Virus record (IMG/VR): IMGVR_UViG_2636415525_000002
Span: 33,425-97,424 of that record
DNA from: a virus
Lineage: Duplodnaviria > Caudoviricetes
Direction: 5' to 3' (one strand)
Length of the DNA: 64,000 nt
The notes under the pieces are model-generated. The model searched no databases. It saw nothing but the letters and a program-made list of their open reading frames with translations, and was not told where the DNA came from. Made by a program: the position numbers and the translations under genes. Positions 4,245 to 64,000 of the stretch are shown one piece after another. Numbering within the stretch: the first letter of the stretch is position 1; each line of letters begins with the position of its first letter.

Positions 4245-4517
4245 TCAAGCCCCCTCGATCAGTGCACGGATCAGATCGGCCTTCCAGTAAAGACGGCGGT
4301 TTGCGGCCTTCTTCGGAACGACGGAGAAATAGCAGCCGTCCGTGGAATACGCTTTTCTCAGAGTCTGCGGACGGAGGCCAAGAAGGTCCGCAGCCTCGTC
4401 GGTAGTGAGATATTCGCGCCCAAACGACGGTGCGGATGTATGGCTGACAGCCGACGCCCGGAACGGGACATCGGCGGCAAGTTGGGCGGCGCCGCCGGAA
4501 ACAGCGTAGAGACTCAT
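4245..4517 (-). CDS. Excisionase/AlpA-like (MerR-type HTH) DNA-binding protein
   Basis: YLTTDEAADLLGLRPQTLRK; stop abuts the ATG of the next gene. Confidence 0.75.
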   Translation of the reverse strand: MSLYAVSGGAAQLAADVPFRASAVSHTSAPSFGREYLTTDEAADLLGLRPQTLRKAYSTDGCYFSVVPKKAANRRLYWKADLIRALIEGA

Positions 4518-4637
4518 TGTTCGCTCCAAAGGATTAGGAAAATCCGCGTCGCAGCATCCCGAGGCTGACAGGATCAACACATCGGACCCAGTCAACTAGG
4601 TCACTGCGAACTGCGTGGAGCGAACAATATTTGTGAG

Positions 4638-4708
4638 CGAAGAGATACGAAACAGCTTCGAAGCTTACCGAAGGCTACCGAAGCTAGTCGTGAACTATCG
4701 AAGCCTAT
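4638..4708. repeat. Seven helically phased ~10-bp imperfect repeats (CGAAG core)
   Basis: Units start at 4638, 4648, 4659, 4669, 4679, 4689 and 4699. Confidence 0.6.
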
Positions 4709-5697
4709 TGTCGTGGGCCGCTCTTCTTCAAAGCATCCCAGCGGCGATTCAAACGGTTATTAAGCGCATCCTTCGTCAATCGGGCGGGGGCCTTCTTGTC
4801 TGTCGAATACCAGTCTTTCGAATACAGCAAAGCGCCGTCGTGATCCGTCTGTCCAGTGAAAGGCCGCTCTTCATTCAAAGCGAGTTCTCTTAGAGCCTGC
4901 CAGACTGTTGAGGTGTTATAAGAGCCAGTGGATGCAACAGCCTTATCAATTGGATCGTCCAGTTCGTTTCGCCGTTGCTTCAGTCGCGAAGACTTTCGAG
5001 TCACCTCGGCCACGCCCACGTCGCCAGCCACCATCTCCGGAGTGACGCTTACCTCGACATGGGGAATAGATTTATCCGTCATGCTTGGATTCGATTCGGA
5101 TGGCTGATCCACCACTTCATTTGTGGCCGGGGCCGCACGGAAGAATCCGAGTATTTCCTCTGTCTCAAAACCAAGACAGCTCAACCACTTCCGATCTGCA
5201 GCGTCAAACGCCGCAGAGTCGTCAATAACCGACTGTTGGGAAAGCGATTTTCGTCCAGACAGAAAATCATTGAATCGATCCTGGTTATAAGCAATCATGC
5301 GCTCCAGCATGGCCATAGCCCGCGTTCTACCTTCGACGTCTAGACGAACGGGCTGCCCAGTCACGCTCCAGTTTCTCCACTTCGGGCTTCGCTCTGCGTG
5401 CTCCATCAGTTCCCAATGCAGGCGACTCGCGGCAAACCAGCGACGATAAAGAGATTCCATTACCGGGGTCAGGGGCAATCCACGGTTGAACCGAGCCATT
5501 GGCAAGCTACTGATCCGTCTTGCGACAAAATCTTCAATCTGCTTGGCCTCACCTTCCGGGATTTCAACGCCATGCCTTGCGATCAAACTGATCACGCTAT
5601 CGAGCGTAATACACGGGATCTTTGGCAAATCTTTGTCGTACAACGGCTCCGCGGCACGCTGGACCTTCGGTTCTTGCACTGTCATGGCCTTTAGCAA
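4705..5697 (-). CDS. Hypothetical island protein
   Basis: 330-aa ORF with plausible composition; no family recognised. Confidence 0.65.
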   Translation of the reverse strand: MLKAMTVQEPKVQRAAEPLYDKDLPKIPCITLDSVISLIARHGVEIPEGEAKQIEDFVARRISSLPMARFNRGLPLTPVMESLYRRWFAASRLHWELMEHAERSPKWRNWSVTGQPVRLDVEGRTRAMAMLERMIAYNQDRFNDFLSGRKSLSQQSVIDDSAAFDAADRKWLSCLGFETEEILGFFRAAPATNEVVDQPSESNPSMTDKSIPHVEVSVTPEMVAGDVGVAEVTRKSSRLKQRRNELDDPIDKAVASTGSYNTSTVWQALRELALNEERPFTGQTDHDGALLYSKDWYSTDKKAPARLTKDALNNRLNRRWDALKKSGPRQ

Positions 5698-36698: not shown

Positions 36699-37250
36699 TC
36701 AGATGTGCGACCAGGTTCGGCCATTCAATATGTCGCGGATCGCTGTCTCTGACACGCCGAACTGCCGTGCAATCCTTGTTTTCTCGCCTCGGCGGCCTAC
36801 AGCCAAATCGCGAATCTCGCGCACCATGGCTTCGGTAAGTTTCGCTTGCCCGTTCGCCTCACCCCTGGCGTCAGCAAGGCCGGCCTCATATGCATGCAGC
36901 GAATTCCCCGATGACGTAACCCATTCCAGATTCCTGAAGTGAGGATTCGTCTTGTCGCCGTCGATGTGGTTCACCTCGGCTCCAACGAACGGCGCAGGCC
37001 CCAGAAATGCGCGCGCAACCAGAATATGAATCATCTGGGTGCGACGCTTCCCGTTTCTGCTCAGATCCACTGATGGGTACGGCCGATCCTTACTGCGATT
37101 GCATGGCTTCAAGATGGAGCCTGCCTTCGCACGCGTTCGCGTCGTCAGACGCTTCACACGACCATAGTCGCTGATAGCGTAGTCCGGAAAGTCCAGCACG
37201 GGCTTCCATCGCTCGGCGTCTACGCAGCCTTCAATATGCACGTTCCGCAT
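36699..37250 (-). CDS. NUMOD4-HNH homing endonuclease
   Basis: WKPVLDFPDYAISDYGRV, IHILVARAF, VNHIDGDKTN...NLEWVT. Confidence 0.88.
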   Translation of the reverse strand: MRNVHIEGCVDAERWKPVLDFPDYAISDYGRVKRLTTRTRAKAGSILKPCNRSKDRPYPSVDLSRNGKRRTQMIHILVARAFLGPAPFVGAEVNHIDGDKTNPHFRNLEWVTSSGNSLHAYEAGLADARGEANGQAKLTEAMVREIRDLAVGRRGEKTRIARQFGVSETAIRDILNGRTWSHI

Positions 37251-37879
37251 GCTTGTGCTATCGATGCGTGAGAGATTGTTGGTCCGGCATTTGCAGCTCT
37301 GACCATTCTGGAAATGTCGCTATCCGGACCACCGGTTCCGTAACGCGCCACGATCCCAACGAACTCGCTGACGTCATGCGCCCGGATTCCCAGCCTGGGA
37401 AACCCATCCTTCGTGAAGGCTGGGGCGCCGAACTCATCCGTCTTCTGAGCGATGTGCATCAATTCGTGCTCGACGAGCGCGCACCACTGCAGGTCGTTGC
37501 ATTCGCGCGCGTAGTGCGCGTCGAGCGTGATGAGGAACGCCGGCACTCGGCCGAACCATTCGAGGAACTGCTGCTCCTGCCTGGCGCGCTGCCAGCCGCC
37601 GGCGCGGATCGTCACCTCTTCGCATTGGCCGACGACGCGCCGCATCTGGCGCACGTTCTCGACCGCCGCCCAGAGGTAGGCGACGTCGGCGTCGATCAGG
37701 TGCTCGTGGTCGGGGTTGTGCAGCAGCGCGCCGTCGCGCAAGAGCGTCTCGTTCACCCACTCGGCGACCCCATCGGCCGGCACGATGCGCCGAACCCAGT
37801 TCGAGTCGTCGAAGAGGATGTCGGGTGGCGCTGGCCGCGCCGCAGCAGATTCGATGACGATCTTCGGCGGCTTCGGCAT
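37220..37879 (-). CDS. Putative phage metallopeptidase
   Basis: LVEHELMHI (HExxH), HDVSEF. Confidence 0.78.
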   Translation of the reverse strand: MPKPPKIVIESAAARPAPPDILFDDSNWVRRIVPADGVAEWVNETLLRDGALLHNPDHEHLIDADVAYLWAAVENVRQMRRVVGQCEEVTIRAGGWQRARQEQQFLEWFGRVPAFLITLDAHYARECNDLQWCALVEHELMHIAQKTDEFGAPAFTKDGFPRLGIRAHDVSEFVGIVARYGTGGPDSDISRMVRAANAGPTISHASIAQACGTCILKAA

Positions 37880-45805: not shown

Positions 45806-46009
45806 TCACGCACCCTCCTTCGCCGGCTGAGCACACCGTTCCCTATGCAGGGCCATCACGCGACTCGCAATCGCAAACGAAACGCGCGAGCCACGGGCTC
45901 CCCTGAGAAGCGCGGAAATGAGGGATTGCGAGCACGGAATTAGGCCGGCCAGCTGGGATTGGGTGAGCCCCGAACCAAGGAGATCGGAGACAGCTTTTTG
46001 GATGTCCAT
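45806..46009 (-). CDS. cro: Cro-like repressor
   Basis: GLTQSQLAGLIPCSQSLISALLRG; divergent from cI. Confidence 0.82.
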   Translation of the reverse strand: MDIQKAVSDLLGSGLTQSQLAGLIPCSQSLISALLRGARGSRVSFAIASRVMALHRERCAQPAKEGA

Positions 46010-46014
46010 GGCCA

Positions 46015-46079
46015 AGTATCACATTTGTGTTTGTTGCGGTCAACACAAATCGAATGGGCCGTTCTATTACGATTGTGAT
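46015..46079. promoter_or_regulatory. OR-like region: divergent promoters and operators
   Basis: Minus strand TTGACC-17-GATACT; plus strand TACGAT just before cI ATG; ATCACATTTGTGTT at 46018 identical to 46865. Confidence 0.7.
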
Positions 46080-46864: not shown

Positions 46865-46906
46865 ATCACATTTGTGTTGACTGTGATGAATCACGTATGT
46901 GATTAT
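46865..46906 (+). promoter_or_regulatory. OL/PL-like promoter with two operators
   Basis: ATCACATTTGTGTT (46865) and AATCACGTATGTGATT (46889) overlapping TTGACT...GATTAT. Confidence 0.7.
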
Positions 46907-47300
46907 TCCCTCAACGCGGCACCGACGCCGCGCCACCGCCCCAGGCGGATCGCTCTCTAACAATCGAAGGTAAGCCGGGACCGCACATGCGGAGCAACCG
47001 GCCGGCGCGATCAGCGTCGTGAGTCAGGACGGACGCTGCGGAAGACCGCAGCGGCATGCAATACCCGAGTGAACCTGACGCAAGACAGCCAGCAACAAGT
47101 GACCGATGGCGTCGTAATCGGTACAAACCTCGCGCGGCCCGGAGCCGGCACGACCGGGAGTAGTCGGGCGCGCGAGTGATGCAGTTCTGACCGGTGGCGG
47201 TTCTTCTTCTGAGGCGTCACCAGTGAGAGTTGGTGCAGCAATCGCAATTCGATTTTTCACACCAAACTTTACTTAGTAGTTCTTTCTATTTGGAGTCTCT

Positions 47301-47681
47301 ATGAGCGCGCCCGTCCCCACTGCCGTTTCCATTCCGCAGCTCGCCGAGGGCGAGATCTACGTCGGTGTCGTCACGAACACGGCCGGCGAACAGCATCACG
47401 TCGTGCTCCTGCCGGGTGACAACGACGACGCCACCTGGCAGGCGCAGATGGAATGGGCGAAGTCGATCGGCGGCGACCTGCCGACACGGGTCGAAATGCT
47501 GTTCCTGCTGGAAAACCATCGTGACGAGTTCGAGCGCGACGCGTACTGGACGTGCCAGCCGGACACCGACCCGGGCTACTCCGGCTGGGCGTGGTGCCAG
47601 ACCTTCGGCAGTGGCGGCCAGGGCCTCATCCACCAGTACGGCGAGTTGCGCGCCCGCGCCGTCCGCAGATTGTCGATTTAA
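47301..47681 (+). CDS. DGR target 3: DUF1566/CLec-like protein (remote target)
   Basis: LPTRVE...YWT...SGWAW...ELRARAVRR; carries VR3. Confidence 0.92.
   Translation: MSAPVPTAVSIPQLAEGEIYVGVVTNTAGEQHHVVLLPGDNDDATWQAQMEWAKSIGGDLPTRVEMLFLLENHRDEFERDAYWTCQPDTDPGYSGWAWCQTFGSGGQGLIHQYGELRARAVRRLSI
47580..47670 (+). repeat. DGR variable repeat VR3
   Basis: 91 bp; 15 mismatches to TR, all at TR adenines. Confidence 0.95.
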
Positions 47682-47714
47682 CCCTTCATCGATTTCAACT
47701 GAGTGGAGGGTGCG

Positions 47715-48131
47715 ATGCATTGGAACAATCACCGGGCCGGAAACGTCTGCACGCTCCCTTCGCGCACGGACGCACTTGCCGACCGCCGACAAGCAGTTGC
47801 CGACGACGCTGCGCTGGCGCGCGACGAGCGCAACGAAGCGATCGCCGAACGCGTCACGTTCGACGTGCTGCCGTTCTCCGCAGAGCAGATCGCAGTTATC
47901 GACGCTGCCCTGCGTCGCGGCTGGATCGAAGATCGGGAGATTTTCTGGAACATTTGCCAAGACGTTCTGAAGGCTGAGATCGCGCGGCGCATCGCGGCCG
48001 CCGATCTCGCCGGCGCCGTGCCGAGTTTCGCCAACGTCTACTGCTCCGGATGCGGCCAGAAGTTCGGCCCGGCCAACGCCGGGTTCTCCAGCTGCACCGA
48101 TCACGCCGGGCGTCGCGCGCTCGACGACTGA
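47715..48131 (+). CDS. Hypothetical protein with C-terminal CxxC...CxxH
   Basis: GGAGG RBS; YCSGCGQ...SCTDH. Confidence 0.65.
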   Translation: MHWNNHRAGNVCTLPSRTDALADRRQAVADDAALARDERNEAIAERVTFDVLPFSAEQIAVIDAALRRGWIEDREIFWNICQDVLKAEIARRIAAADLAGAVPSFANVYCSGCGQKFGPANAGFSSCTDHAGRRALDD

Positions 48132-48179
48132 GCAACCGCGCCGGCTTCGGCTGGCGATCACACCACACTGAGAGACCAC

Positions 48180-48407
48180 ATGAACGAGATCAACGGCGGC
48201 GGCCCGGCGTTTCCGGAAGTTCCCGGCGACTGCAACGGATACGAAGGCCAACCCGGCATGAAGCTGCGTGACTACTTTGCGGCGAAGGCAATCGCCGGCT
48301 TGCTCGCCAACCCGAACGTGAAGCTGGGCGAGGATCGAGCCGACAAAGTCGCCGTTCTCGCGTACAGCGTGGCTGACGCCATGCTCCGCGCTCGAGGCAA
48401 AGCATGA
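48180..48407 (+). CDS. Conserved small phage protein
   Basis: GGPAFP...GMKLRDYFAAKA...AYSVADAML. Confidence 0.8.
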   Translation: MNEINGGGPAFPEVPGDCNGYEGQPGMKLRDYFAAKAIAGLLANPNVKLGEDRADKVAVLAYSVADAMLRARGKA

Positions 48408-48754
48408 ACGAGATCAAGCACACGCTCGGTCAGGCGTGGCTGCAGCGCGCGAAGGAGCTCGCGCAGGAGTGGGCCGACTCGAGCTTCGCGTATGGCGAGC
48501 TGCCCTCGGATGTCGACGACAGTTCGTCGGCCGATGCCTATGCGCGCTCGCTCGCGGCTGACCGCTCTCTCGACGCACACCTTCAACCGATGGCGCACCT
48601 GATCGACGCACTGCACCTGGTCGCGTCCAAGACCGTGCTCACGTCCGGCATCCGCGCCGTTGTCGATGACGCGCTGGCGAAGGCAGGCTTCGCCGCACCC
48701 ATGCCCGCGTCCGATCCCGTTCGCCACATCACCATCGCCGGAGTCGACCGATGA
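48404..48754 (+). CDS. Hypothetical phage protein
   Basis: ATGA-coupled. Confidence 0.65.
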   Translation: MNEIKHTLGQAWLQRAKELAQEWADSSFAYGELPSDVDDSSSADAYARSLAADRSLDAHLQPMAHLIDALHLVASKTVLTSGIRAVVDDALAKAGFAAPMPASDPVRHITIAGVDR

Positions 48755-48996
48755 GCAATCTCAAATCCCCCACGCAATGCGGCGACCTCGCTGAAAAGCT
48801 GATCGCCGACTACGTGCGTGAATCCGGTGCGTATGGCAATCCGAACGCGCTCGCGAACGTGATGGAAATGCTGATCAGCAAGGCGGCGCTCGGCATCGCG
48901 ATGGTCGGCGGCGAGGCGATCGCGCAGCAGATCCTCGACCGTACGAAGCACAACGTCGCGACTTTCGCCGAGCGGACGCTGCGGAGGAACCACTGA
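48751..48996 (+). CDS. Hypothetical phage protein
   Basis: ATGA-coupled. Confidence 0.65.
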   Translation: MSNLKSPTQCGDLAEKLIADYVRESGAYGNPNALANVMEMLISKAALGIAMVGGEAIAQQILDRTKHNVATFAERTLRRNH

Positions 48997-49172
48997 TGCG
49001 CTCGCCCCTCAACAGCCTACAGCCTGTATTTCGCGAATACAGGCAATCGCCTGTATCGCGCCTGCGCTACGTAATCGAAGGCTCGGCATGGGCAGTCGCA
49101 TACGGCGTCGCGATCGGCGCGCTCTGGTTCGGCGCTGATCTGGCCGGCCCGTATCTGCGGAGCCTGGGATGA
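48996..49172 (+). CDS. Small membrane protein (58 aa)
   Basis: Manual translation MRSPLNSL...AWAVAYGVAIGALWFG; GGAGG RBS; TGATG overlap. Confidence 0.6.
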   Translation: MRSPLNSLQPVFREYRQSPVSRLRYVIEGSAWAVAYGVAIGALWFGADLAGPYLRSLG

Positions 49173-49318
49173 AGTCCTTTCTGCGCAAGGTCGGCGAGCT
49201 GGTCGGCCTGTGGTTCGTCGTCGCGACGATCCTGTTCGTCTTCGTCTGGCTTGTCGTGCCGACGCTGATCAGTGCGCCAGACGACGCGCCTGTCATCGTT
49301 CCCACGAGGCCATCATGA
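49169..49318 (+). CDS. Small membrane protein (49 aa)
   Basis: Manual translation MKSFLRKVGELVGLWFVVATILFVFVWLVVP; ATGA overlaps. Confidence 0.6.
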   Translation: MKSFLRKVGELVGLWFVVATILFVFVWLVVPTLISAPDDAPVIVPTRPS

Positions 49319-49458
49319 GCCGCTTCACCGATCACGCTGACCTCTTTGAGCGTCGGCACCCGCGCGCCGCCCGGGCACTCGTTCTCGCGACCTTCATCGC
49401 AGTTGCAGTTATCGCGATCGCGATCGACTACACCTGCAAGCGCTTCGGAATCCTCTAA
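49315..49458 (+). CDS. Small membrane protein (47 aa)
   Basis: MSRFTDH...ALVLATFIAVAVIAIAI. Confidence 0.6.
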   Translation: MSRFTDHADLFERRHPRAARALVLATFIAVAVIAIAIDYTCKRFGIL

Positions 49459-49551
49459 GCGCCGCCGTCGCACCCATCGACGCAACGTTGTCCGCCACAT
49501 GCCGCGCCGTTCGATGCGCGTCTCTCGTCGTTCTATCTGGAGTTCCAAGAC

Positions 49552-49851
49552 ATGAAAACCATCGACACCCAACCGGTCGAGTCGTCGCAGATCCATAGCA
49601 TCGGCTACGACGCCGAATCCGAAACGCTTGCGGTCCGCTTCAAGGATCGCAAGACGAATGCGCCGACGTCGCTGTACCACTACACCGGCTTCACGCAGGC
49701 GAACTTCGATGCGCTCAAGGGCGCCGACTCGCTCGGCTCGCACTTCTACAAGCACATCAAGCCGTTCCCCGACCGCTTCCCGTACGTGTGCATCGAGAAG
49801 ATGCCGGTACCGGCCGCCGACGTCGACGCCGAAATCGCAGGTGCGGCATGA
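49552..49851 (+). CDS. KTSC-domain protein
   Basis: VESSQIHSIGYD...LAVRF...YHY...ADSLGSHFYKHIK. Confidence 0.88.
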   Translation: MKTIDTQPVESSQIHSIGYDAESETLAVRFKDRKTNAPTSLYHYTGFTQANFDALKGADSLGSHFYKHIKPFPDRFPYVCIEKMPVPAADVDAEIAGAA

Positions 49852-50657
49852 CCCCCTCGGTCTACACCGTGCGGGCGTCGAGCTGGGGCGCACTTTTCGA
49901 GTGCGCCTACCGGTGGGAGGCAATCCACCTCCTGAAGATGCGGAACGTCGTTGGTCTGCGCGCCGCGCTCGGTACCGCGATCCACGCCGGCACGGCTGCC
50001 TATGACCAGAGCATGCTTGACGGCTCCGGCCTGACCGTCGACGACGCGGCCGGAGCATTCGTCGACAAGCTGCACGACCCGTCGAACGAGTACAACCCGG
50101 CGAGCGACGATCTCAATCTGAAGGAAGCCGAGCGCATCGGTATCTCGCTCACGACGAAGTACTGCCTCGAAATCACGCCGCGGTACAACTTCGTCGCGGT
50201 CGAGATGGAAACGAAGCCGCTCGACATCGACTGCGGCGGTGGGATCGTGGTCCGCCTCACCGGCACGATGGACCGCGCACGTGTCCGTCGCACGGCGCTC
50301 GGCCCGGGCATCGCCGACCTGAAGAGCGGATCGAAGGCCGTCGCGCAGGGCGTCGCTGTCACGAAGGGCCACGGCCCGCAGATCGGGACATACGAGCTGT
50401 TGTACGAGCACACGACGGGCGAGCAGATCGGCGACACCGCCGAGATCATCGGCCTGAAAACGAAGGGTACGCCTGAGGTCGCGACCGCACCGGTCAAGAA
50501 CGCCAAGCGCGTGATGCTTGGCACCGAGGAAACGCCGGGGCTGATCCAGTTTGCCGCCGACATGTTCCGCTCTGGTCGCTTCTACCCCAACCCGAAATCG
50601 CTGTTGTGCGACAAGAAGTACTGCCCGCGCTACGGCACCTGCCAATTCCACGAATAA
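49848..50657 (+). CDS. PD-(D/E)xK (RecB/Cas4-like) exonuclease
   Basis: GTAIH, GTMD, ADLKSG, QIGTY, C-terminal Cys cluster. Confidence 0.82.
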   Translation: MTPSVYTVRASSWGALFECAYRWEAIHLLKMRNVVGLRAALGTAIHAGTAAYDQSMLDGSGLTVDDAAGAFVDKLHDPSNEYNPASDDLNLKEAERIGISLTTKYCLEITPRYNFVAVEMETKPLDIDCGGGIVVRLTGTMDRARVRRTALGPGIADLKSGSKAVAQGVAVTKGHGPQIGTYELLYEHTTGEQIGDTAEIIGLKTKGTPEVATAPVKNAKRVMLGTEETPGLIQFAADMFRSGRFYPNPKSLLCDKKYCPRYGTCQFHE

Positions 50658-50668
50658 CCGAGGTATCC

Positions 50669-51868
50669 ATGTCCACGCCCACCACTCTCGAATCCGTCCG
50701 CTCGCCGCTGCCGCGCGAGGCCAACATGCCCGCCGTGTCTCCCGGCTTCGGCTCGCTGCAGTCGTTCGAGCTGATGCAGCGCGCTGCGAACCTTCTTGCG
50801 TCGTCGACGCTCGTGCCTGCCGCGTATCGCAAGGTCATCGAAAAGCTCGACAAGTACGGCAACGTGAAGGAATCGCGTGAGAACCCGAACGCGCTCGCGA
50901 ACGCCGTCGTTGCGCTGAATATGGCGCAGCGCATGGGCGCCGATCCGCTGATGGTGATGCAGAACCTGTACATCGTCGAGGGCCGGCCGTCCTGGTCGTC
51001 GCAGTGGATCATCGCCGCGGTGAACGGCTGCGGCCGCTTCTCGCCCCTGCGCTTCGACATCAAGGTGCTCGGCGACAAGACAGTCGAACGCGTCGAAACG
51101 GTCTGGGAGAACGGCAACCGCAGCACGGTCACGAAGCGCGTGCCGATCGTCGACAAGGTCTGCGTGGCGTGGGCCATCGAGAAAGAGACCGGCGAGCGGA
51201 TCGACTCGCCTGCCGTGTCGATCGAGATGGCCGTCAAGGAAGGCTGGTACACGAAGAACGGCAGCAAGTGGCAGACGATGGACGAGGTCATGCTGCGCTA
51301 TCGCACCGCGTCGTTCTTCGGGAAGCTGTACGCGCCCGAGCTGCTAATGGGCCTGACGAGCGTCGAGGAAGTGGCGGACATCGTCGACGTGCACGAAGAC
51401 GGCAGTTACTCGGTCAACCGCTCGACGCTCGACGAGCTGCGCGCCGGACGCGCGCAGCCGGCCGAGGAAGTCTCGCGCGCCACGCCGGCGCAAACCGGCC
51501 CCGCCACCGAATCGCACGAAAACGCCGCGCCGCCGTCGGACGCGCACGCAGACCCCGTCGACGACCAGGGCGAACCGGGCGATGACGATGACGGCGGCCA
51601 AGGCGGTTTCGACTTCGACGTCGCCGGCCTCGTGCGCGGCATCCGCGAGGACATCGAGTCCGCCAAGTCGCCCGAAGACCTCGACCTCGCCCGCAGCGCG
51701 ATCAGCGGCGTGCCGGACGAAACCGCCAAGGCCGAACTGAACGCCCTCGCCTCCGCACGCATGCGCGCCATCACGGCGGCAGCCGAACAGGCGGCCGCTG
51801 GCAAGGCATCTTCCCAAACGACCGCGCCGGCCAGCCGTCGGCCGCGCGGCCCGATCACTGCCGACTAA
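50669..51868 (+). CDS. Putative recombinase/ssDNA-annealing protein
   Basis: PLMVMQNLYIVEGRPSW, SKWQTM..ML.YR; follows exonuclease. Confidence 0.6.
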   Translation: MSTPTTLESVRSPLPREANMPAVSPGFGSLQSFELMQRAANLLASSTLVPAAYRKVIEKLDKYGNVKESRENPNALANAVVALNMAQRMGADPLMVMQNLYIVEGRPSWSSQWIIAAVNGCGRFSPLRFDIKVLGDKTVERVETVWENGNRSTVTKRVPIVDKVCVAWAIEKETGERIDSPAVSIEMAVKEGWYTKNGSKWQTMDEVMLRYRTASFFGKLYAPELLMGLTSVEEVADIVDVHEDGSYSVNRSTLDELRAGRAQPAEEVSRATPAQTGPATESHENAAPPSDAHADPVDDQGEPGDDDDGGQGGFDFDVAGLVRGIREDIESAKSPEDLDLARSAISGVPDETAKAELNALASARMRAITAAAEQAAAGKASSQTTAPASRRPRGPITAD

Positions 51869-51898
51869 CGCGCGCCTTCCGCCGCCAAGGATTTCGAC

Positions 51899-52780
51899 AT
51901 GACCGACAAGAACGTCCTCCAGATGACCGCCGACAGCATCGGCAAAGACCTGCTTTCCGCGCTGGTGACCGAAATGAAGCTGATGCCCGACATCTGGGTG
52001 AAGCTGTCCGAGAAGAAGCAAAACGACGTGATCGACCGGCTGCGTGCGCGCGTCGAGCACAACGTGAAGATGGCGACGCATCTGATCGCGAGCGATGGCC
52101 GCATCGTCGTCCAGGGTGACCTCGACCAGGTCACGATCAAAGACGGCGTCAAGGCGGTCGTGAAATTCGGCGGTTCTCAGCCGAACCTGCACGAGCTCTA
52201 CGAAGCAAGTGGGAAAACCGTTCCGGTCGTCGTCGCAAACCCGGGCGAGCACACCGGCGGCATGGACGAGATCCGCGGCGAATCGGATCAGCGCGGCTTC
52301 GACCTCGGCCGCGAGTACACGGACGGCGATGGCGATGGCATGGACGGAGACAAACCCGATGGCGACGTCGTCGACGCCGAGTTCCGCGAGGTGCCGAAGC
52401 TCGGCGACGGTCCGACGCAAGCGCAGATCGACGAACAGCATCATGCCGGCCGGCAGGCGGCCGCCGAAGGCAAGCCCGAAAGCGAATGCCCCGTGATGGC
52501 AGGCGAACTGTGCATCGCATGGGTGAAGGGCTGGAAGGAGTGGCACGAGCAACAGGCCGGCGCCGGCGACGAGGATCCGCTGTACCCCCAAGTCGAAACG
52601 TTCGTGATCGAGCAGCAGAAAGTGACGATCTCGAGCGTGCAGCGTCAGTTCAAGATCGGCTACAACCGCGCCGCACGGCTGGTCGAACTGCTCGCAGCGA
52701 AGGGCATCGTGAGTGCGATGGATTCGGACGGCGGCCGCACGGTGCTGCGGCCGCGCAGGCAGCAGGGAGAGGAATCGTGA
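51899..52780 (+). CDS. Protein with RMF-like and FtsK-gamma domains
   Basis: DPLY...ISSVQRQFKIGYNRAARLVELL..GIVS; GRQAAAEGK..ECP...WVKGW. Confidence 0.8.
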   Translation: MTDKNVLQMTADSIGKDLLSALVTEMKLMPDIWVKLSEKKQNDVIDRLRARVEHNVKMATHLIASDGRIVVQGDLDQVTIKDGVKAVVKFGGSQPNLHELYEASGKTVPVVVANPGEHTGGMDEIRGESDQRGFDLGREYTDGDGDGMDGDKPDGDVVDAEFREVPKLGDGPTQAQIDEQHHAGRQAAAEGKPESECPVMAGELCIAWVKGWKEWHEQQAGAGDEDPLYPQVETFVIEQQKVTISSVQRQFKIGYNRAARLVELLAAKGIVSAMDSDGGRTVLRPRRQQGEES

Positions 52781-54543
52781 AAATCACCGACATCTACGTA
52801 GCGAACGTTCTCGGAATCCGGACGGCGGACCTCCGGCTCGCAAAGCCGGTCGCCCTCTTCACCGGCCCGAACGGCGCCGGCAAGAGCAGCCTGCAGGAAG
52901 CCGTGCGCATGGCGCTCACCGGTGACACGGTGCGCGTCGCGCTGAAGAAGGAATACGGCTCGCTCGTCACCGAGGGAGCCGACGGCGGCCAGATCGTGGT
53001 CGCGTGCGGCGAGCAGGCGAACAGCGTCATGCTGCCGTCCGGGAAACTCAAGCGTGAGATCGCCGAGGATCCGCGCCTGCCGCTGGTGCTCGACGCGCAG
53101 CGGTTCGCGCACCTCGGCGCGGGCGAGCGTCGCGCGTTCCTGTACGATCTGATGGGCGTGAAGATCGGCGTCGACGAAATGCGCGCCCGGCTGCTCGCTA
53201 AGCTCGGGCTTCGCGCAGACGCAGTGCCGGCACCGGCCGCCGCGCGGCTCGCGGCGATCACGCCGATGTTGCGCGCCGGCTTCGAAGCGGCGCAGAAGGA
53301 AGCGGCCGACCGCGCGCGCGGCGCGAAGCAGTCATGGCGCAACGCGACCGGCGAGACGTACGGCAGCCAGAAGGCAGCAACCTGGCGCCCGGCGCCGGTC
53401 GAGTTCGACGAGGCAGCATTGCGGAAGCTCACGGGCGACCGCGCGGCGCTCGACGACCGGATCGGCGAGCTGCAGCAGCAGATCGGCGCTGCCGATGCGG
53501 CGGACACCGCGGCACGTGCGCGCGCGTCGAAAATCGCCGACCTGCGCACGCGCGCCGCCGGTTACGCGAAGGCGGTCGAACTCGCGCAGCTCGCCGACGA
53601 GCAGGTCGCCGAATTCGAGCCCAAGGTCGAAGCGCTTCGTGTGCGCGCCGGCGCGGCGCCGGCCGGCACCGAATGTTCGTGCCCGGAATGCGGAGCGCTC
53701 CTGCGGTACCTCAACGGCGTTTTGTCGGCCGCGGCCGCAGCCGGCGCGCGCGACGCTGACGCGGCCGCGAAACTGCCCGAGTACGAGCAGGGCCTGAAGA
53801 CGCTGCAGAACGCTGCTGCGAACCGTAAGCGCGACCTCGAAGCGGCAGACTCGGCCGCGACGCAGTTGCGCGCGCTCGAAGACGATGCAGCGGACAGCGG
53901 CGCGGCCGCCGCGCGCGAAAGCGGCGACGCCGCGCGCTCGGAGCTGGCCGACCTTCAGCACCGCCGAAAGCAGCTCGACACCGACATCGCGACGCTTCGC
54001 GAGATCGAGCGCCGCGCCGCCGGCGCCGCAGATCTGGCCAAGCAAGCCGCCGCGCTGCACAGCGACGTCGCCGCGTACGAGGCGATCGCCGACGCGCTCG
54101 CGCCGAACGGCATCCCGGCCGACTTGCTCAGCGAAGCGCTCACGCCGATGAACGAGCGCCTCGTCGCGCTCGCCGAGATGTCGGAATGGGCCGACGTGAC
54201 GATCACGCCCGAGATGGAAGTCCTCGCCGACGGCCGCGCGTACGCCCTGCTGTCCGAATCGGAACGCTGGCGCGTCGATGCGCACATCGCCGCGGCGATC
54301 AGCCACTTCTCAGGCCTGAAACTGCTCGTGCTCGATCGTGCCGACGTCCTGGTCGGCCCGGAGCGCGATCGGCTGCTCTACTGGCTCGACGATCTCGCGT
54401 ACACCGACCAGATCGAGACGGCGCTCGTGTTCATGAGCCTGAAGACGCCGCCCGGCGGCCTGCCCGAAGCCATCGAAGCATTCTGGGTCGAGGATGGTCA
54501 GGTCGCGCCAGCCGCGCAGCATGCAATACGGGAGGCAGCGTGA
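52777..54543 (+). CDS. SMC/Rad50(SbcC)-like ABC ATPase
   Basis: GPNGAGKSS, coiled coils, CPEC hook, LSESE signature, LLVLD. Confidence 0.85.
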   Translation: MKITDIYVANVLGIRTADLRLAKPVALFTGPNGAGKSSLQEAVRMALTGDTVRVALKKEYGSLVTEGADGGQIVVACGEQANSVMLPSGKLKREIAEDPRLPLVLDAQRFAHLGAGERRAFLYDLMGVKIGVDEMRARLLAKLGLRADAVPAPAAARLAAITPMLRAGFEAAQKEAADRARGAKQSWRNATGETYGSQKAATWRPAPVEFDEAALRKLTGDRAALDDRIGELQQQIGAADAADTAARARASKIADLRTRAAGYAKAVELAQLADEQVAEFEPKVEALRVRAGAAPAGTECSCPECGALLRYLNGVLSAAAAAGARDADAAAKLPEYEQGLKTLQNAAANRKRDLEAADSAATQLRALEDDAADSGAAAARESGDAARSELADLQHRRKQLDTDIATLREIERRAAGAADLAKQAAALHSDVAAYEAIADALAPNGIPADLLSEALTPMNERLVALAEMSEWADVTITPEMEVLADGRAYALLSESERWRVDAHIAAAISHFSGLKLLVLDRADVLVGPERDRLLYWLDDLAYTDQIETALVFMSLKTPPGGLPEAIEAFWVEDGQVAPAAQHAIREAA

Positions 54544-55154
54544 GAGAAGACATCGAGAAGTATCTCGCCGCGACGTCAGAAGCCACGGCGAAGGCCGTAG
54601 CGACCGGGACCGGGCTTCCCCATCTCGACGTGACGAAGGAGCTGAACCGGATGCTCGGCGAGGCGATCGTCGAGCGCGAGAAACGGGCCGGCGGCGGCAA
54701 CGAATATGTGTACTGGCTCGCGCGCGGCGTCGCTCCGATACCGCCGGCCGACGCCGCGCCGCCGGTCGTCGCTCTGTCGCTGGCCGACGCCATTGCGAGC
54801 CTGCCGCCGTCGGCCGTAGCGGCCGACACCACCTCACGCGTCATCGCGGAGCTGCGAGCCGAGGTCGAACGGCTCACCGCCGAGCGCGACGCGGCGCAGC
54901 AACGAGCCGACACCTGGCGCGCGAACGCCGCGGCACTCGAAGCGCGCATCGACGAGCTGACGCTCGGGCCCGTCGGCGCGCGTGCACCGCTGTTCGTGAC
55001 GGTCGGCAGGTATTGCAAACCACGGCGTCACGCGTCGCTCGAGAAAGCCCAGCGGCGCGGCAGCGCGCTCGTACGCAGCGAGAAGGAATCCGAGGTGCTC
55101 GTGCTCGAGCCGGTTGGCCGGATCGTGCGCGGCACGCAGTGGATGCCCCGCTGA
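54540..55154 (+). CDS. wHTH plus coiled-coil protein
   Basis: GTG start; ATAKAVATGTGL...EYVYWL. Confidence 0.65.
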   Translation: MREDIEKYLAATSEATAKAVATGTGLPHLDVTKELNRMLGEAIVEREKRAGGGNEYVYWLARGVAPIPPADAAPPVVALSLADAIASLPPSAVAADTTSRVIAELRAEVERLTAERDAAQQRADTWRANAAALEARIDELTLGPVGARAPLFVTVGRYCKPRRHASLEKAQRRGSALVRSEKESEVLVLEPVGRIVRGTQWMPR

Positions 55155-55202
55155 TTCAACAGAGCCTACCCCGCGCGGCTTACCTCGGACCGCGCGGCAT
55201 TC

Positions 55203-55238
55203 GAAGGGCGCCGATCAATCTCGGCGCCCTTCTCTTTT
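55203..55238 (+). terminator. Terminator-like hairpin upstream of DGR cassette
   Basis: GAAGGGCGCCGA-TCAATC-TCGGCGCCCTTC followed by TCTTTT. Confidence 0.7.
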
Positions 55239-55249
55239 CCGGAGAAACC

Positions 55250-55612
55250 ATGCAGATCCAGCTTCCTACGCTCGCCGACGGCGAGATCTACCTCTGCGGC
55301 TTTGTCGACAAGAACGGCGACGTCACGCACACGATTCTGCTGCCCGGCGACAACGACGACGCCAGCTGGCAGGCGCAGATGGACTGGGCCAAGAGCATCG
55401 GAGGTGATTTGCCGACACGGGTCGAAATGCTGTTCCTGCTGGAAAACCATCGTGACGAGTTCGAGCGCGACGCGTACTGGACGTGCCAGCCGGACACCGA
55501 CCCGGGCTACTCCGGCTGGGCGTGGTACCAGGACTTCGGCAATGGCCTCCAGAACTTCAGCCCCCAGATCAGCGAGTTGCGCGCCCGCGCCGTCCGCAGA
55601 TTGTCGATTTAA
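55250..55612 (+). CDS. DGR target 2: DUF1566/CLec-like protein
   Basis: GGAG RBS; MQIQLPTL...SGWAWYQDFGNGLQNFSPQISELRARAVRR; 120 aa. Confidence 0.92.
   Translation: MQIQLPTLADGEIYLCGFVDKNGDVTHTILLPGDNDDASWQAQMDWAKSIGGDLPTRVEMLFLLENHRDEFERDAYWTCQPDTDPGYSGWAWYQDFGNGLQNFSPQISELRARAVRRLSI
55511..55601 (+). repeat. DGR variable repeat VR2
   Basis: 91 bp; 11 mismatches to TR, all at TR adenines. Confidence 0.95.
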
Positions 55613-55642
55613 CCCTTCATCCTTTCACAATCGGAGCACGCA

Positions 55643-56107
55643 ATGACGATCACGCTGGAACAGATTGAAGCAGATCACGCGCGCATCGGCGCGCTGATCG
55701 ACGAATTCAAGAAGCAGCAGCGCGCGACCGAGCACCACGTCGACGCCGCCACGGTCCCGCTCGCGGCCGGCGAGCGCATCGCCGGGCAGATCCTTCTCGA
55801 AGACGGTTCGCTGAGCCACTACCTGATTCTCCTGCCGGGCGATGCCGAAGATCTGGACTGGGAAGCGGCGAAGGCATGGGCCGCCGAACGTGGCGGCGAA
55901 CTGCCGACGCGGCGGGAGCAATCGCTCCTGTTCGCGAACCTGAAGGGCGAGTTCGAGCCGAGCTGGTATTGGTCCAGCGAACGCCACGAATCGAACTCCG
56001 GCTGGGCGTGGTACCAGTACTTCAGCAATGGCAGCCAGTACTACGGCCGCCAGCTCAGCGAGTTGCGCGCCCGCGCCGTCCGCAGATTTATCCATTCAGT
56101 TTTTTGA
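55643..56107 (+). CDS. DGR target 1: DUF1566/CLec-like protein
   Basis: LPTRREQSLL...WYWSS...SGWAWYQYFSNGSQYYGRQLSELRARAVRR. Confidence 0.93.
   Translation: MTITLEQIEADHARIGALIDEFKKQQRATEHHVDAATVPLAAGERIAGQILLEDGSLSHYLILLPGDAEDLDWEAAKAWAAERGGELPTRREQSLLFANLKGEFEPSWYWSSERHESNSGWAWYQYFSNGSQYYGRQLSELRARAVRRFIHSVF
55997..56087 (+). repeat. DGR variable repeat VR1
   Basis: 91 bp; 11 mismatches to TR, all at TR adenines. Confidence 0.95.
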
Positions 56108-56121
56108 TCATTTGACCCACC

Positions 56122-56478
56122 GTGGCCCTGCACAACCAACTCCCGATATATCGAGCCGCCTACGGGCTGCTCGATGACGTCACCAACCTGGTCAAGAACA
56201 TGCCCCGCGACTTCAAGCGCAGCATCGGCGAGAAGATCAGCGCGGAGTGCATCGAGATCATGGTGTTGGTGTTCCGCGCGAACGTCGCGGCCGACAAGGC
56301 ACCTCACCTCGTCGAATTGCTTGAGCGCTTGCAGGTAATCGAGTTGCTGCTTCGTCTCAGCATGGACAAGCGCCTGATCGCACCCGACGGCTACGCAGCT
56401 GCCGTCGAGAAAACGACGAGCATCGGGAAGCAGGCCAACGGCTGGAAGAACGCCGCAAACCGTCGCCCGCTCCGCTAA
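56122..56478 (+). CDS. avd: Avd accessory variability determinant (four-helix bundle)
   Basis: LPIY, MPRDFKRSIG, LLLRL, IGKQANGWK; lies between target and TR. Confidence 0.9.
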   Translation: MALHNQLPIYRAAYGLLDDVTNLVKNMPRDFKRSIGEKISAECIEIMVLVFRANVAADKAPHLVELLERLQVIELLLRLSMDKRLIAPDGYAAAVEKTTSIGKQANGWKNAANRRPLR

Positions 56479-56518
56479 GGTCACGGCCTTCGCGGCTGAG
56501 CGATATATCAATCTGGTC

Positions 56519-57820
56519 GTGCCGCTGGCCCACAAGGCCACCGCCATGCGCAATGAGGAAACCGGCCGCCAGCGTGCGGAAAGGTCCAGCGCAGTTTCCC
56601 AGCTGAGAAATCGGCCGGGCGACGTAGATCGCACGATACCTCCGGCTGGGCGTGGTACCAGAACTTCAACAATGGCAACCAGAACAACAACCACCAGAAC
56701 AACGAGTTGCGCGCCCGCGCCGTCCGCAGATCGAGGGCCAATTTCGTTCGCCGAGCTGGTCGAAGCGTATCTCGACTGCCGGCGAACGAAGCGAAACAGC
56801 AATGCAGCGCTCGCGTTCGAAATGCGGCTCGAACGCAACCTGCGCCGCCTGTACGACGAGCTGGTCGACGGCAGCTACACGCCCGGCCGCTCGAAGTGCT
56901 TCGTCATCACGAGACCGAAGCCGCGCGAGGTTTGGGCGGCAGCGTTTCGCGATCGCATCGTGCACCACCTACTTTACAACCGGATCGGCCCGCGCTTCGA
57001 GCGGTCGTTCATCGCCGACTCGTGCGCCTGCATCAAGGGGCGCGGCACCCTGTACGCCGCGCAGCGACTCGAATCGAAGGTGCGTTCGATCACGCAGAAC
57101 TGGTCGAAACGCGCGTTCTATCTGAAGTGCGATCTCGCGAACTTCTTCGTCAGCATCGACAAGCGGATCCTGCTCGACCTGCTGCTCGCGAAGATCTCCG
57201 AGCCATTCTGGCGCGCGCTGACCGAGCGCGTGCTGATGCACGATCCACGGGCCGACTTCGAATACCACGGCGACCCGGCAATGATGGAGCTCGTGCCGCC
57301 CCATAAACGGCTGCTCGAACAGGCGCCGGACCTCGGCCTGCCGATCGGGAACCTATCGAGCCAGTTCTTCGCGAACGTCTACCTCGACGTGCTCGACCAG
57401 CGCGCGAAGCACGTGCTCGGCGCTCGGCACTACATCCGATACGTCGACGACTTTGTGTTCCTGCACGCCTCGCCGGCGCGCTTGAACGAGATCCTCGCCG
57501 ATGTCACGGATTTCCTGCCGGAACAGCTCGGCGCTCGGATCAATCCACGCAAGACCATCCTGCAGCCGATCGACCGCGGCATCGACTTCGTCGGACAGGT
57601 CATCAAGCCGTGGCGCCGGGAGACGCGGAAGCGAACGCGCAATGAAGCGTTGCGGCGCATCGCCGAAACACCGGCCACCGACCTTATGCCCGTTGCAAAT
57701 TCGTATTTTGGCCTGCTGCGCCAGGCGACCGCTAGCCATCACGACCGAGCGGGGCTGGCGAATCTTCTCCGGTCACTCGGCAAAGCCGTCGATCGCGACC
57801 TCACCAAGACTTTCGGCTAA
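56519..57820 (+). CDS. DGR reverse transcriptase (start uncertain; possibly ATG 56672)
   Basis: PKPREV...FRDRIVHH, KCDLANFF.SID, GLPIGNLSSQFFANVYL, YIRYVDDFV, GIDFVG. Confidence 0.96.
   Translation: MPLAHKATAMRNEETGRQRAERSSAVSQLRNRPGDVDRTIPPAGRGTRTSTMATRTTTTRTTSCAPAPSADRGPISFAELVEAYLDCRRTKRNSNAALAFEMRLERNLRRLYDELVDGSYTPGRSKCFVITRPKPREVWAAAFRDRIVHHLLYNRIGPRFERSFIADSCACIKGRGTLYAAQRLESKVRSITQNWSKRAFYLKCDLANFFVSIDKRILLDLLLAKISEPFWRALTERVLMHDPRADFEYHGDPAMMELVPPHKRLLEQAPDLGLPIGNLSSQFFANVYLDVLDQRAKHVLGARHYIRYVDDFVFLHASPARLNEILADVTDFLPEQLGARINPRKTILQPIDRGIDFVGQVIKPWRRETRKRTRNEALRRIAETPATDLMPVANSYFGLLRQATASHHDRAGLANLLRSLGKAVDRDLTKTFG
56641..56731 (+). repeat. DGR template repeat (TR)
   Basis: 8 AAC plus 1 AAT codons in the VR frame; 14-nt GC-only tract GCGCGCCCGCGCCG; diverges from VRs after ...CGCAGAT. 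Confidence 0.96.
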
Positions 57821-62697: not shown

Positions 62698-63035
62698 GCG
62701 AAGACAACGAAACCGCCCTCACCCTTCAGCAGGTCGCTGAGCGTATGCAGCTGTCGTACAGCACAGTTTTTGCCATGCGTAAGCAAATTGGATTTCGCCT
62801 GCCCGGCTCCCGGGTTTGGCGTGTCTGGCCGTCGCGGCTTGCCGGGCTAACAGAAAAACGCAACAATCTGACCCGGCTATCGCTGCGGGTCGGTGGAGAA
62901 AATGGATGTCAATCCGCAGACGTAAAGGCTCCGGGGTCTGGTTTATCGACCTCCGCACGCCAGGCGGCGAAAGAATTCGCCGCTCTACTGAAACAACGGA
63001 CAGGCGGGCAGCGCAGGAATACCACGACCGGCTGA
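62694..63035 (+). CDS. Excisionase-like HTH protein
   Basis: GTG start; LTLQQVAERMQLSYSTV; overlaps int. Confidence 0.7.
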   Translation: MSEDNETALTLQQVAERMQLSYSTVFAMRKQIGFRLPGSRVWRVWPSRLAGLTEKRNNLTRLSLRVGGENGCQSADVKAPGSGLSTSARQAAKEFAALLKQRTGGQRRNTTTG

Positions 63036-64000
63036 AGGCCGATCTGTGGCGGCAAGACAAGTTGGGGGAGGTGCCGGATCGCATTTTCGAAGAAGCCGCG
63101 ATGCGGTTTTTGAAGTTGTGCGAGGGTCAGCGTGACTATGCCGGGAAGTTGAGGCACATCACATACTGGGGAGAGCAATTTGCCGGTCGCTCGATCCGGG
63201 CCATCACGGCCGACGAGATTTTCGATGCACTTCCCACGCATCGACTGATCAAGGGAAAGCCGGCACGCCCATTGGAGCCCGGCACGCGCAACCGATACGT
63301 CAACACCATTCGGCGCATGCTGAACCTGTGCCAGGAATGGGGATGGATCGATCGCGTGCCGAAGCTCCAGCGGTTCGAAGAGCCTGACGTGCGGGTGCGC
63401 TGGGAGCCGCCGGCGGTCATCATGGCGATGATCAACGCGTTGCGTCTGCCGTGGATGCGCGACGCGGCGATCGTCGCCGTAGCGACCGGGATGCGCGAGT
63501 CGGAGCTGTTCGGTCTGCGCGTCTCGCAACTCGATCTCGCGCAGTGCAACGCGTGGATCACGCACGAGGGTGCGAAGTCAAAGCGCGCCCGGTCGGTGCC
63601 ACTAAACGAGGATGCGATGAGCGTGCTCGAGCGGAGAGCCCGGACGGCAACGGATCTCGTCTTTACGCGCGGATACACGCGCGGCGACGGGCCGCCAAAA
63701 CTGATCGGGCAGATCGACAAGAGGGACTTCGCGCAGGCGTGCAAGACGGCCGGGATGGCCGACTTCAACTGGCACGACCTGCGGCACACCTGGGCAAGCT
63801 GGCACGTGCAGCGCGGCACGCCGCTGATGGTCTTGAAGGAGTTGGGCGGCTGGGAGACGGTTGCGATGGTGCAGAAGTACGCGCACCTCGCGCCCAGCCA
63901 TCTGGCGCAGCACGCAGGCACGGTCACATTTTGGGCGCAGTCGGCCGAGCAGAAAGAAAAAACGCCGCTGTCGGAGGCGGCGCAATCCCTTGCTGCATAA
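62906..64000 (+). CDS. int: Tyrosine integrase
   Basis: TGMRESEL, AKSK, WHDLRHTWASW, LGGW, KYAH. Confidence 0.95.
   Translation: MSIRRRKGSGVWFIDLRTPGGERIRRSTETTDRRAAQEYHDRLKADLWRQDKLGEVPDRIFEEAAMRFLKLCEGQRDYAGKLRHITYWGEQFAGRSIRAITADEIFDALPTHRLIKGKPARPLEPGTRNRYVNTIRRMLNLCQEWGWIDRVPKLQRFEEPDVRVRWEPPAVIMAMINALRLPWMRDAAIVAVATGMRESELFGLRVSQLDLAQCNAWITHEGAKSKRARSVPLNEDAMSVLERRARTATDLVFTRGYTRGDGPPKLIGQIDKRDFAQACKTAGMADFNWHDLRHTWASWHVQRGTPLMVLKELGGWETVAMVQKYAHLAPSHLAQHAGTVTFWAQSAEQKEKTPLSEAAQSLAA

Follow-up and report, generated by a model that had tools for sequence, protein, structure and literature searches.

The diversity-generating retroelement (DGR) of Bordetella phage BPP-1 transfers adenine-specific changes from a template repeat (TR) to a variable repeat (VR), encodes the accessory protein Avd together with a reverse transcriptase (RT), carries its VR at the 3' end of a gene for a lectin-fold protein and possesses an AAY-rich template as well as a repeat with a G+C-rich 3' end. 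Its single target, Mtd, is a receptor-binding virion protein of ~380 aa. All these features of repeats and enzymes recur in the DGR described here, which lies in a stretch of 64,000 nucleotides (in the following called the window), namely positions 33,425 to 97,424 of the IMG/VR record IMGVR_UViG_2636415525_000002. The window thus comprises the last 64 kb of the 97,424-base provirus record, whose end is also the end of the window, and represents a Magia-like temperate myovirus prophage in a Burkholderia genome. In contrast to BPP-1, one template serves three targets of only 120-154 aa without N-terminal tail-attachment domains, the TR resides within the RT frame without a separate spacer, no hairpin follows the VRs, and the cassette is located in an early arm instead of beside tail genes.

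In the literature, phage DGRs are generally viewed as tropism switches acting on tail proteins, and the parts of the survey drawn on here assign viral DGR targets mostly to tail structures, while the existence of non-membrane-bound targets is left open (Roux 2021, PMC8144416). Short targets have been catalogued before. The sections of Wu 2018 (PMC5758913) that deal with target classes describe a category 'd' or CLec2 of the Legionella LdtA type, comprising DUF1566 and DUF823 as well as Fib_succ_major targets, with approximately half of the DUF1566-type category being short proteins that consist of the DUF1566 domain alone. The targets in the window resemble this category in their weak DUF1566 (Lcl_C) similarity over the VR and in having the C-terminal domain of Legionella Lcl as top structural match. 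LdtA itself, however, is described there as a surface lipoprotein, whereas the proteins studied here possess neither lipobox nor signal peptide nor conserved cysteines and are encoded in a phage early operon. Cytoplasmic lectin-fold DGR targets, on the other hand, have been predicted as 'antigen sensors' in cellular conflict systems of multicellular bacteria (Doré 2024, PMC10907252). As far as the consulted part of that study goes, its targets share with ours the predicted lack of export, the lectin fold and the presence of several targets per template, but they are large multidomain proteins (STAND NTPase or MoxR-associated) of cellular genomes, while bare lectin domains of a phage are found here. 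In the open-access literature searched, with the supplements of Wu 2018 and Roux 2021 lying outside the search, no paper was found in which the DGR targets of phages are regarded as proteins made early or acting inside the cell.

The same cassette is present in phage Magia (MT701587) with 89.8% nucleotide identity over 5 kb. Between AAA ATPase and RT, the genes of both phages are arranged in the same order, and in Magia, too, the remote target is the first gene of its arm; the regions upstream of the ATPase and those downstream of the RT differ. In the relevant parts of the Magia announcement, a potential DGR with targets in genes 47 and 57, termed 'relatively short reading frames', is mentioned, and in these parts its activity, fold, distribution and genomic position are not analysed (PMC7883833). 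According to the GenBank notes, the flagged targets are lectin-fold proteins. Gene 46, the homologue of our target 1, is annotated as hypothetical; a VR was found in it in the present comparison (locus L001). Hence, the DGR was already known, as the Magia note reports it and short DUF1566-type targets are a catalogued class, and the original prediction made from the window had overstated its novelty. Added here are the conservation of both architecture and early-arm position across a large prophage clade and the comparative evidence for ongoing adenine mutagenesis.

Template, variable repeats and the enzymes of the cassette

Only one repeat family with four copies of 94 nt occurs in the window (47578-47671, 55509-55602, 55995-56088 and 56639-56732). 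Since all differences fall at adenines of the RT-proximal copy, this copy is the template and the other three are the VRs. Base-by-base comparison with the TR at 56641-56731 yielded 11 mismatches for the gene at 55643-56107 (target 1), 11 for that at 55250-55612 (target 2) and 15 for that at 47301-47681 (target 3), with all 37 located at template adenines (21 A-to-G, 11 A-to-T and 5 A-to-C changes). This recount is identical to the originally predicted figures for one TR and three 91-nt VRs at gene 3' ends. Given 26 A in the 91 bases of the TR, the probability of finding 37 of 37 mismatches on A by chance is ~7e-21. In total, 19 of the 26 TR adenines are altered in at least one VR, and the A of all three CAG codons in the TR is unchanged in all three VRs; in two alignments (69 and 72 homologues), the glutamine positions matching these codons vary hardly or not at all. 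The previously calculated 15^9 variants per target, derived from nine AAY codons, are correct in both codon count and arithmetic.

A stop codon follows 11-20 nt past the end of each VR. The G+C-rich 3' end of the repeat is common to TR and VRs up to AGAT, after which the next base is T in all three VRs and C in the TR. A scan of the whole 97-kb record revealed no fifth copy of the repeat, and when both strands of the window were scanned with tolerance for changes at A, no VR beyond the same three emerged; therefore, no DGR target exists in the tail genes. A strong stem-loop just 3' of the TR (56743-56792, z -2.3) was considered as spacer-type RNA element of the family but rejected because an alignment of 61 sequences displayed no conserved structure (consensus -0.97 kcal/mol). 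It may be a chance structure or one restricted to the Burkholderia subclade.

Avd and RT are intact as originally stated: both frames are whole, the RT translation contains IGNLSSQ and YVDD, and the profile matches (Table 1) agree. The motif [I/L]GxxxSQ is a mark of DGR RTs. In NCBIfam, the sole match of Avd is DivGenRetAVD with 53 bits, under its cut-off of 80, while the RT gives only sub-cut-off matches to other RT classes, the libraries scanned containing no DGR-specific RT model. In-frame starts of the RT are GTG at 56519, ATG at 56546 (the start annotated in Magia) and ATG at 56672, the latter being inside the TR. RT homology starts at 56738, and no start codon occurs between the TR end and this position. 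In 133 of 152 loci, the RT frame opens 5' of the template, so translation may extend the N-terminus of the RT by the residues that the TR encodes.

Taken together, the DGR with its three targets is real and its mechanism canonical. Judging from the repeat pattern and the comparison with relatives, Avd and RT would copy the template RNA with errors at adenines, and the resulting cDNA would replace the last ~91 nt of three paralogous genes.

Adenine-templated divergence among relatives

The clade to which this RT belongs is large and easily sampled, with relatives of the RT at 210 places in a collection of species-representative genomes (185,579 species with one genome each), while 583 such places were found in IMG/VR. 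For comparison, 160 related loci were fetched with the RT, 80 of the 210 and 80 of the 583. In the closest relative among the loci compared (L086), the flanks differ from the window at 39 of 2393 sites and the TR at 0 of 91. Its two proximal VRs, in turn, differ at 14/26 and 10/26 adenine-templated sites but at 0/65 and 0/65 other sites. According to the original prediction, a lack of A-specific VR variation in related prophages would mean an inactive DGR; the variation in L086 is, on the contrary, entirely of this kind (24/52 adenine-templated versus 0/130 other sites). The same pattern was found in the other 24 close relatives with comparable TR and VRs, while a further one (L113) reached only part of the RT gene. 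Where non-A bases of the TR have changed, both VRs have changed along with it, as predicted by copying from TR to VR; in L095, for instance, the TR differs at 10 of 91 positions and the VRs at 9/65 and 9/65.

Across the family, 2516 of 5477 A sites (46%) are mismatched compared to 639 of 12,937 non-A sites (4.9%) in 192 TR-VR pairs from 131 loci, the VR that defined each span being left out; the non-A figure is an upper bound, since shorter repeats run out of homology. Moreover, in contigs of another relative, VR 1 differs at no fewer than four adenine-templated sites among the differences listed. Contigs of one public sequencing run, by contrast, are identical to the window and may represent its source. 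Within the window, targets 2 and 3 (55410-55621 and 47479-47690) are identical over 212 nt except for 14 sites, all of them adenine-templated, with no more than ~70% similarity in their 5' parts. Such a pattern suggests a recent gene conversion between the two paralogues, probably followed by independent mutagenesis. Ongoing mutagenic retrohoming by an active DGR appears well supported by these sequence comparisons.

Small lectin-fold targets in the immunity-to-integrase arm

AlphaFold2 models built on family alignments reached a pLDDT (predicted local distance difference test) of 93.6 (target 1) and 95.7 (target 2). Target 2 is predicted to consist of a bare lectin-type fold from residue 13 onwards, to which target 1 adds a helix (residues 5-24) and a linker, so the structure check proposed beforehand gave confident minimal lectin folds for these two models. 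In Foldseek searches against the PDB, the first-ranked match was the C-terminal domain of Legionella Lcl (8q4e) with E 7e-5 for target 1 and 5e-4 for target 2 (Foldseek TM 0.73 for the latter), followed by C-type lectin-like domains, Bd2740 (a fibre-tip domain of Bdellovibrio) and tetranectin. Among viral models, the best matches were small DUF1566 proteins encoded by uncultured phages, together with a single Peptidase S74 protein of 594 aa. ESM Atlas neighbours belong exclusively to 'hypothetical protein' and 'DUF1566 domain-containing protein' clusters. The original classification as DUF1566/CLec hence holds with regard to the C-type-lectin fold, but not with regard to family membership: the Pfam family Lcl_C (PF07603, formerly DUF1566) scores 17.8, 21.9 and 27.3 bits against a gathering threshold of 34.9, and a comparison of the profile with PDB sequences gave E 0.018. 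As the targets score under the Pfam cut-off, the label 'DUF1566' is valid at fold level only. No NCBIfam family matches the targets, and none of the PADLOC families matches any of the three at E values up to 0.001.

With 120, 126 and 154 aa, the targets have the sizes originally given, and their lack of a hydrophobic N-terminus or membrane stretch agrees with the claim that signal peptide and transmembrane segment are missing. Their peak hydropathy over 19 residues is 0.8-1.1, their isoelectric point (pI) 4.3-5.4, and they contain 0-2 non-conserved cysteines; no signal peptide, membrane segment, conserved cysteine pair or lipobox was seen, as judged from hydropathy and sequence and not by a dedicated predictor. 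Outside the repeats, the ratio of nonsynonymous to synonymous substitution rates (dN/dS) of the scaffold is about 0.05-0.36 in unsaturated pairs (0.05-0.18 for target 3), while saturated or misaligned pairs (dS >1), which were left in, give ratios >1.

These properties extend to the family. At least one VR is present in 152 of 162 loci with placeable RT, with two VRs in 83 and three in 55 of them (before merging split repeats). All VRs are on the RT strand, and two are found at fixed distances of ~-1230 and ~-742 nt from the RT. The 359 target open reading frames (ORFs) have median lengths of 154 aa at the first proximal position (10th-90th percentile 151-203), 120 aa at the second (117-202) and 128 aa at the remote one (124-199); of the 361 segments that carry a repeat, 359 have an intact frame. 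Only six of the 359 targets show a 19-residue hydropathy peak >1.6. Family targets are acidic (median pI 4.9-5.1) and approximately three quarters of them contain no or one cysteine. The pair of 154 and 120 aa is retained from Burkholderia to Pseudomonas at 65% RT identity, and the hosts named for these beta- and gamma-proteobacterial prophages further include Paraburkholderia, Caballeronia, Cupriavidus, Pandoraea, Dechloromonas and Gallionella. Two phage records of 47,902 bp each, 'Shewanella phage vB_Sb_QDWS' (OK094664, L167) and 'Hujiaoplasma phage zrk29-1' (OP650936), carry the cassette with ~87-88% nucleotide identity; their host labels look doubtful. In Pseudomonas phage Medea1 (L166), a tandem pair of DUF1566-annotated genes (203 and 206 aa, 4088-5396) lies between the recombination genes ERF, YqaJ and SSB and two methyltransferase genes, with no RT annotated within 10 kb. 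A DUF1566 pair may hence persist without a DGR in this phage.

The genes flanking the cassette are variable (ATPase in 21, RecT in 22, methylase in 8 and regulator in 27 of 162 loci), so the conserved unit is target, target, Avd, template and RT. Upstream AAA ATPase and regulator accompany the cassette in Magia, but were rejected as parts of it based on their presence in only 21/162 and 27/162 loci. In 89 dereplicated loci, 224 of 253 upstream and 203 of 240 downstream neighbours are encoded on the same strand. The commonest named PHROG families among 150 upstream ORFs are SbcC-like, RecE-like, RecT and ParB-like proteins, those among 150 downstream ORFs integrases, DNA methyltransferases, HNH and PAPS-reductase-like proteins; on each side, the 25 commonest families include none for tail, fibre or baseplate. 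In 33 of 38 evaluable cases, the remote target is preceded by 150 nt or more without a gene or by a divergent gene, which is also true of target 3.

Table 1 Features of the DGR and of the arm that carries it (positions in the window)
Feature	Position	Strand	Remarks
Cro-like helix-turn-helix (HTH) ORF, 69 aa, heads minus-strand arm	45809-46015	-	ORF list; HTH by eye; no NCBIfam match
Two operator-like ATCAC-N4-GTGAT sites (46018, 46066)	46018-46079	.	Between divergent HTH genes
CI-like HTH repressor candidate, 130 aa	46080-46472	+	PHROG transcriptional repressor families, phrog_4 E 2e-17; sub-cut-off NCBIfam RstR, DicA repressors; start ATG 46080
Promoter-like site TTGACT-18 nt-GATTAT with TG	46877-46906	+	Overlapped by operator-like sites 46865, 46890
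Target 3, 126-aa minimal lectin-fold protein	47301-47681	+	VR 47580-47670; 15 A-site mismatches; first early-operon gene
Terminator-like hairpin, 12 pairs, 9 G-C, T-rich tail	55203-55232	+	18 nt before target 2; terminator annotated there in Magia
Target 2, 120-aa minimal lectin-fold protein	55250-55612	+	VR 55511-55601
Target 1, 154 aa, N-terminal helix (residues 5-24) and lectin fold	55643-56107	+	VR 55997-56087
Avd accessory protein	56122-56478	+	Pfam bAvd 48.2 bits vs cut-off 40; phrog_3206 'Avd protein of DGR' E 1.8e-29
DGR reverse transcriptase	56519-57820	+	RVT_1 E 6e-14; phrog_1423 E 5e-114; IGNLSSQ and YVDD in translation
Template repeat (TR)	56641-56731	+	26 A/91; nine AAY codons in target frame; inside RT frame
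Tyrosine integrase	62816-64000	+	phrog_1 E 2.9e-55; last gene of co-directional arm and provirus record

In the window, the plus-strand arm starts with target 3 and continues with small ORFs, exonuclease, RecT, an SbcC-like ATPase, a regulator and the terminator-like hairpin, followed by target 2, target 1, Avd, the TR inside the RT frame, a C5 methylase, DUF5131 and the integrase. This is a layout which we take to be that of the pL arm of lambda. The minus strand carries genes for endolysin, baseplate, tape measure, sheath, portal, terminase, RusA and methylase, and a transposase-family ORF (37220-37879, minus strand; phrog_513 E 2e-82) is located between the terminase and RusA regions. The original description of the targets as lying far from the structural genes is thereby borne out, with the arm stretching between immunity region and integrase and the structural genes being encoded on the opposite strand, 10-40 kb from the DGR targets. 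Seven matches of ATCAC-N4-GTGAT occur in the window compared to 1.46 expected, four of them at the HTH intergenic region and the promoter-like site. The latter is probably a pL-like early promoter, 395 nt before target 3. The leader between them (46906-47300, 395 nt) contains no convincing ORF and occupies the same place as nutL and N in lambda. For the 'repressor-controlled early operon' of the original prediction, the CI/Cro-like pair, the operator-like sites and the co-directional arm speak in favour, repressor control being read here from the sequence alone.

Possible roles of the variable proteins

According to the explanation we consider most likely, with a roughly even chance of being correct, the targets are soluble variable binders acting inside the infected cell. 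This cytoplasmic role, possibly directed at host defence or takeover, follows from the gene position and the missing export signals, and an intracellular or anti-defence role appears plausible on these grounds. The products would be minimal soluble C-type-lectin-fold proteins with randomized residues in C-terminal strands and loops. They would be made early after infection or induction from the pL-like arm, with targets 2 and 1, located behind the terminator, only being made upon read-through. Each progeny genome would carry a different set of binders to be tried in the next host, and host defence or takeover proteins would be one candidate class of ligands. Two alternatives, a receptor binder of the virion and a sensor protecting the lysogen, are ranked behind the intracellular binder in this order.

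Several observations weigh against an intracellular function. Experimentally characterized phage DGR targets are, in the parts of the survey cited above, all receptor-binding virion proteins (Roux 2021, PMC8144416). The lectin fold also caps fibre proteins, as in the C-terminal domain of Bd2740 and the 594-aa Peptidase S74 phage protein, and phrog_4245, a profile of 583 positions, matches target 1 at its C-terminus only. Missing export signals were judged on a hydropathy-only basis. Among the 150 upstream ORFs, five match phrog_19855, a 'virion structural protein' family (best E 2.7e-12), and the flank tallies are qualitative, because gene calling in the flanks misses or mis-starts genes. As to the retroelement itself, no stable BPP-1-like hairpin was found downstream of the three VRs (z-scores 1.03, 0.41 and -1.41). 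Finally, contigs from RNA libraries (two studies of one organism) span target 1, Avd and RT of a ~92% identical relative; as these libraries also contain contigs of 18-68 kb, DNA carry-over is possible.

The precedent of receptor binders and the fibre-capping lectin domains, including the long phrog_4245 profile, would fit the first alternative, in which the targets are virion-associated receptor-binding or decoration proteins on tail fibre or baseplate that are encoded outside the late operon and serve as a tropism switch as in BPP-1. In addition, the N-terminal helix of target 1 could oligomerize or dock, since the fold matches include tetranectin, a lectin that forms trimers and has an alpha-helical coiled coil. 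We nevertheless regard a virion role as rather unlikely. Targets 2 and 3 offer no anchoring domain, as only ~12 residues precede their lectin core, and none of the three targets has the location in the tail module or the N-terminal virion-attachment domain by which tail-fibre and receptor-binding proteins were recognized. The genes are part of the immunity-to-integrase arm, with the structural genes at a distance on the other strand, tail, baseplate and fibre families are absent from the commonest flanking families, and Medea1 retains its tandem DUF1566 pair between recombination and methylase genes. A search for virion proteomes yielded none for Magia or vB_Sb_QDWS.

An improbable alternative, based on analogy, is that the targets serve the lysogen as hypervariable cytoplasmic sensors or blockers of superinfecting phages, i.e. 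as a prophage-encoded defence. The element does reside in a prophage, the cytoplasmic lectin-fold targets of conflict systems were themselves proposed as antigen sensors in the part of that work referred to (Doré 2024, PMC10907252), and the upstream SMC/ABC-type ATPase gives weak, P-loop-level matches to LmuB and PtuA. This ATPase, however, is confined to the minority of loci given above and also accompanies recombination genes in a phage lacking this DGR, while effector or signalling domains are neither fused to the targets nor conserved in their neighbourhood, and no PADLOC family matches any target. Furthermore, the operator-overlapped promoter before target 3 and the strong terminator before the cassette would suggest that these genes are silent in the lysogen. 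A selfish or relict module, whose targets have no selected binding function and whose VR variation is neutral churn, would agree with the VRs within one genome being unrelated to each other, but is very improbable in view of the purifying selection on the target scaffolds, the intact frames in nearly all repeat-bearing segments, the CAG adenines fixed in the window with their (nearly) invariant glutamines, and the paired 154-aa and 120-aa design kept from Burkholderia to Pseudomonas.

Returning to the intracellular binders, the early-gene location of the targets hints at a use of targeted hypermutation other than receptor change. What stands out is the family-wide pairing of minimal targets free of export signals with a fixed early place between recombination genes and integrase. 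More tentatively, and with some doubt on our side, a widespread clade of temperate proteobacterial phages may employ its DGR to hypermutate two to four minimal cytoplasmic early binders rather than adsorption proteins, which would amount to a phage 'antibody repertoire' against variable host proteins, for instance those of defence systems or takeover targets. The question is directly testable, since the cassette is found in Magia, a phage available in culture, and in many inducible prophages. If intracellular action holds true, this would be the first case of a phage directing programmed hypermutation at an interaction inside the cell, and the targets would provide a natural minimal scaffold (120 aa, about 10^10-10^11 variants) for the evolution of binders.

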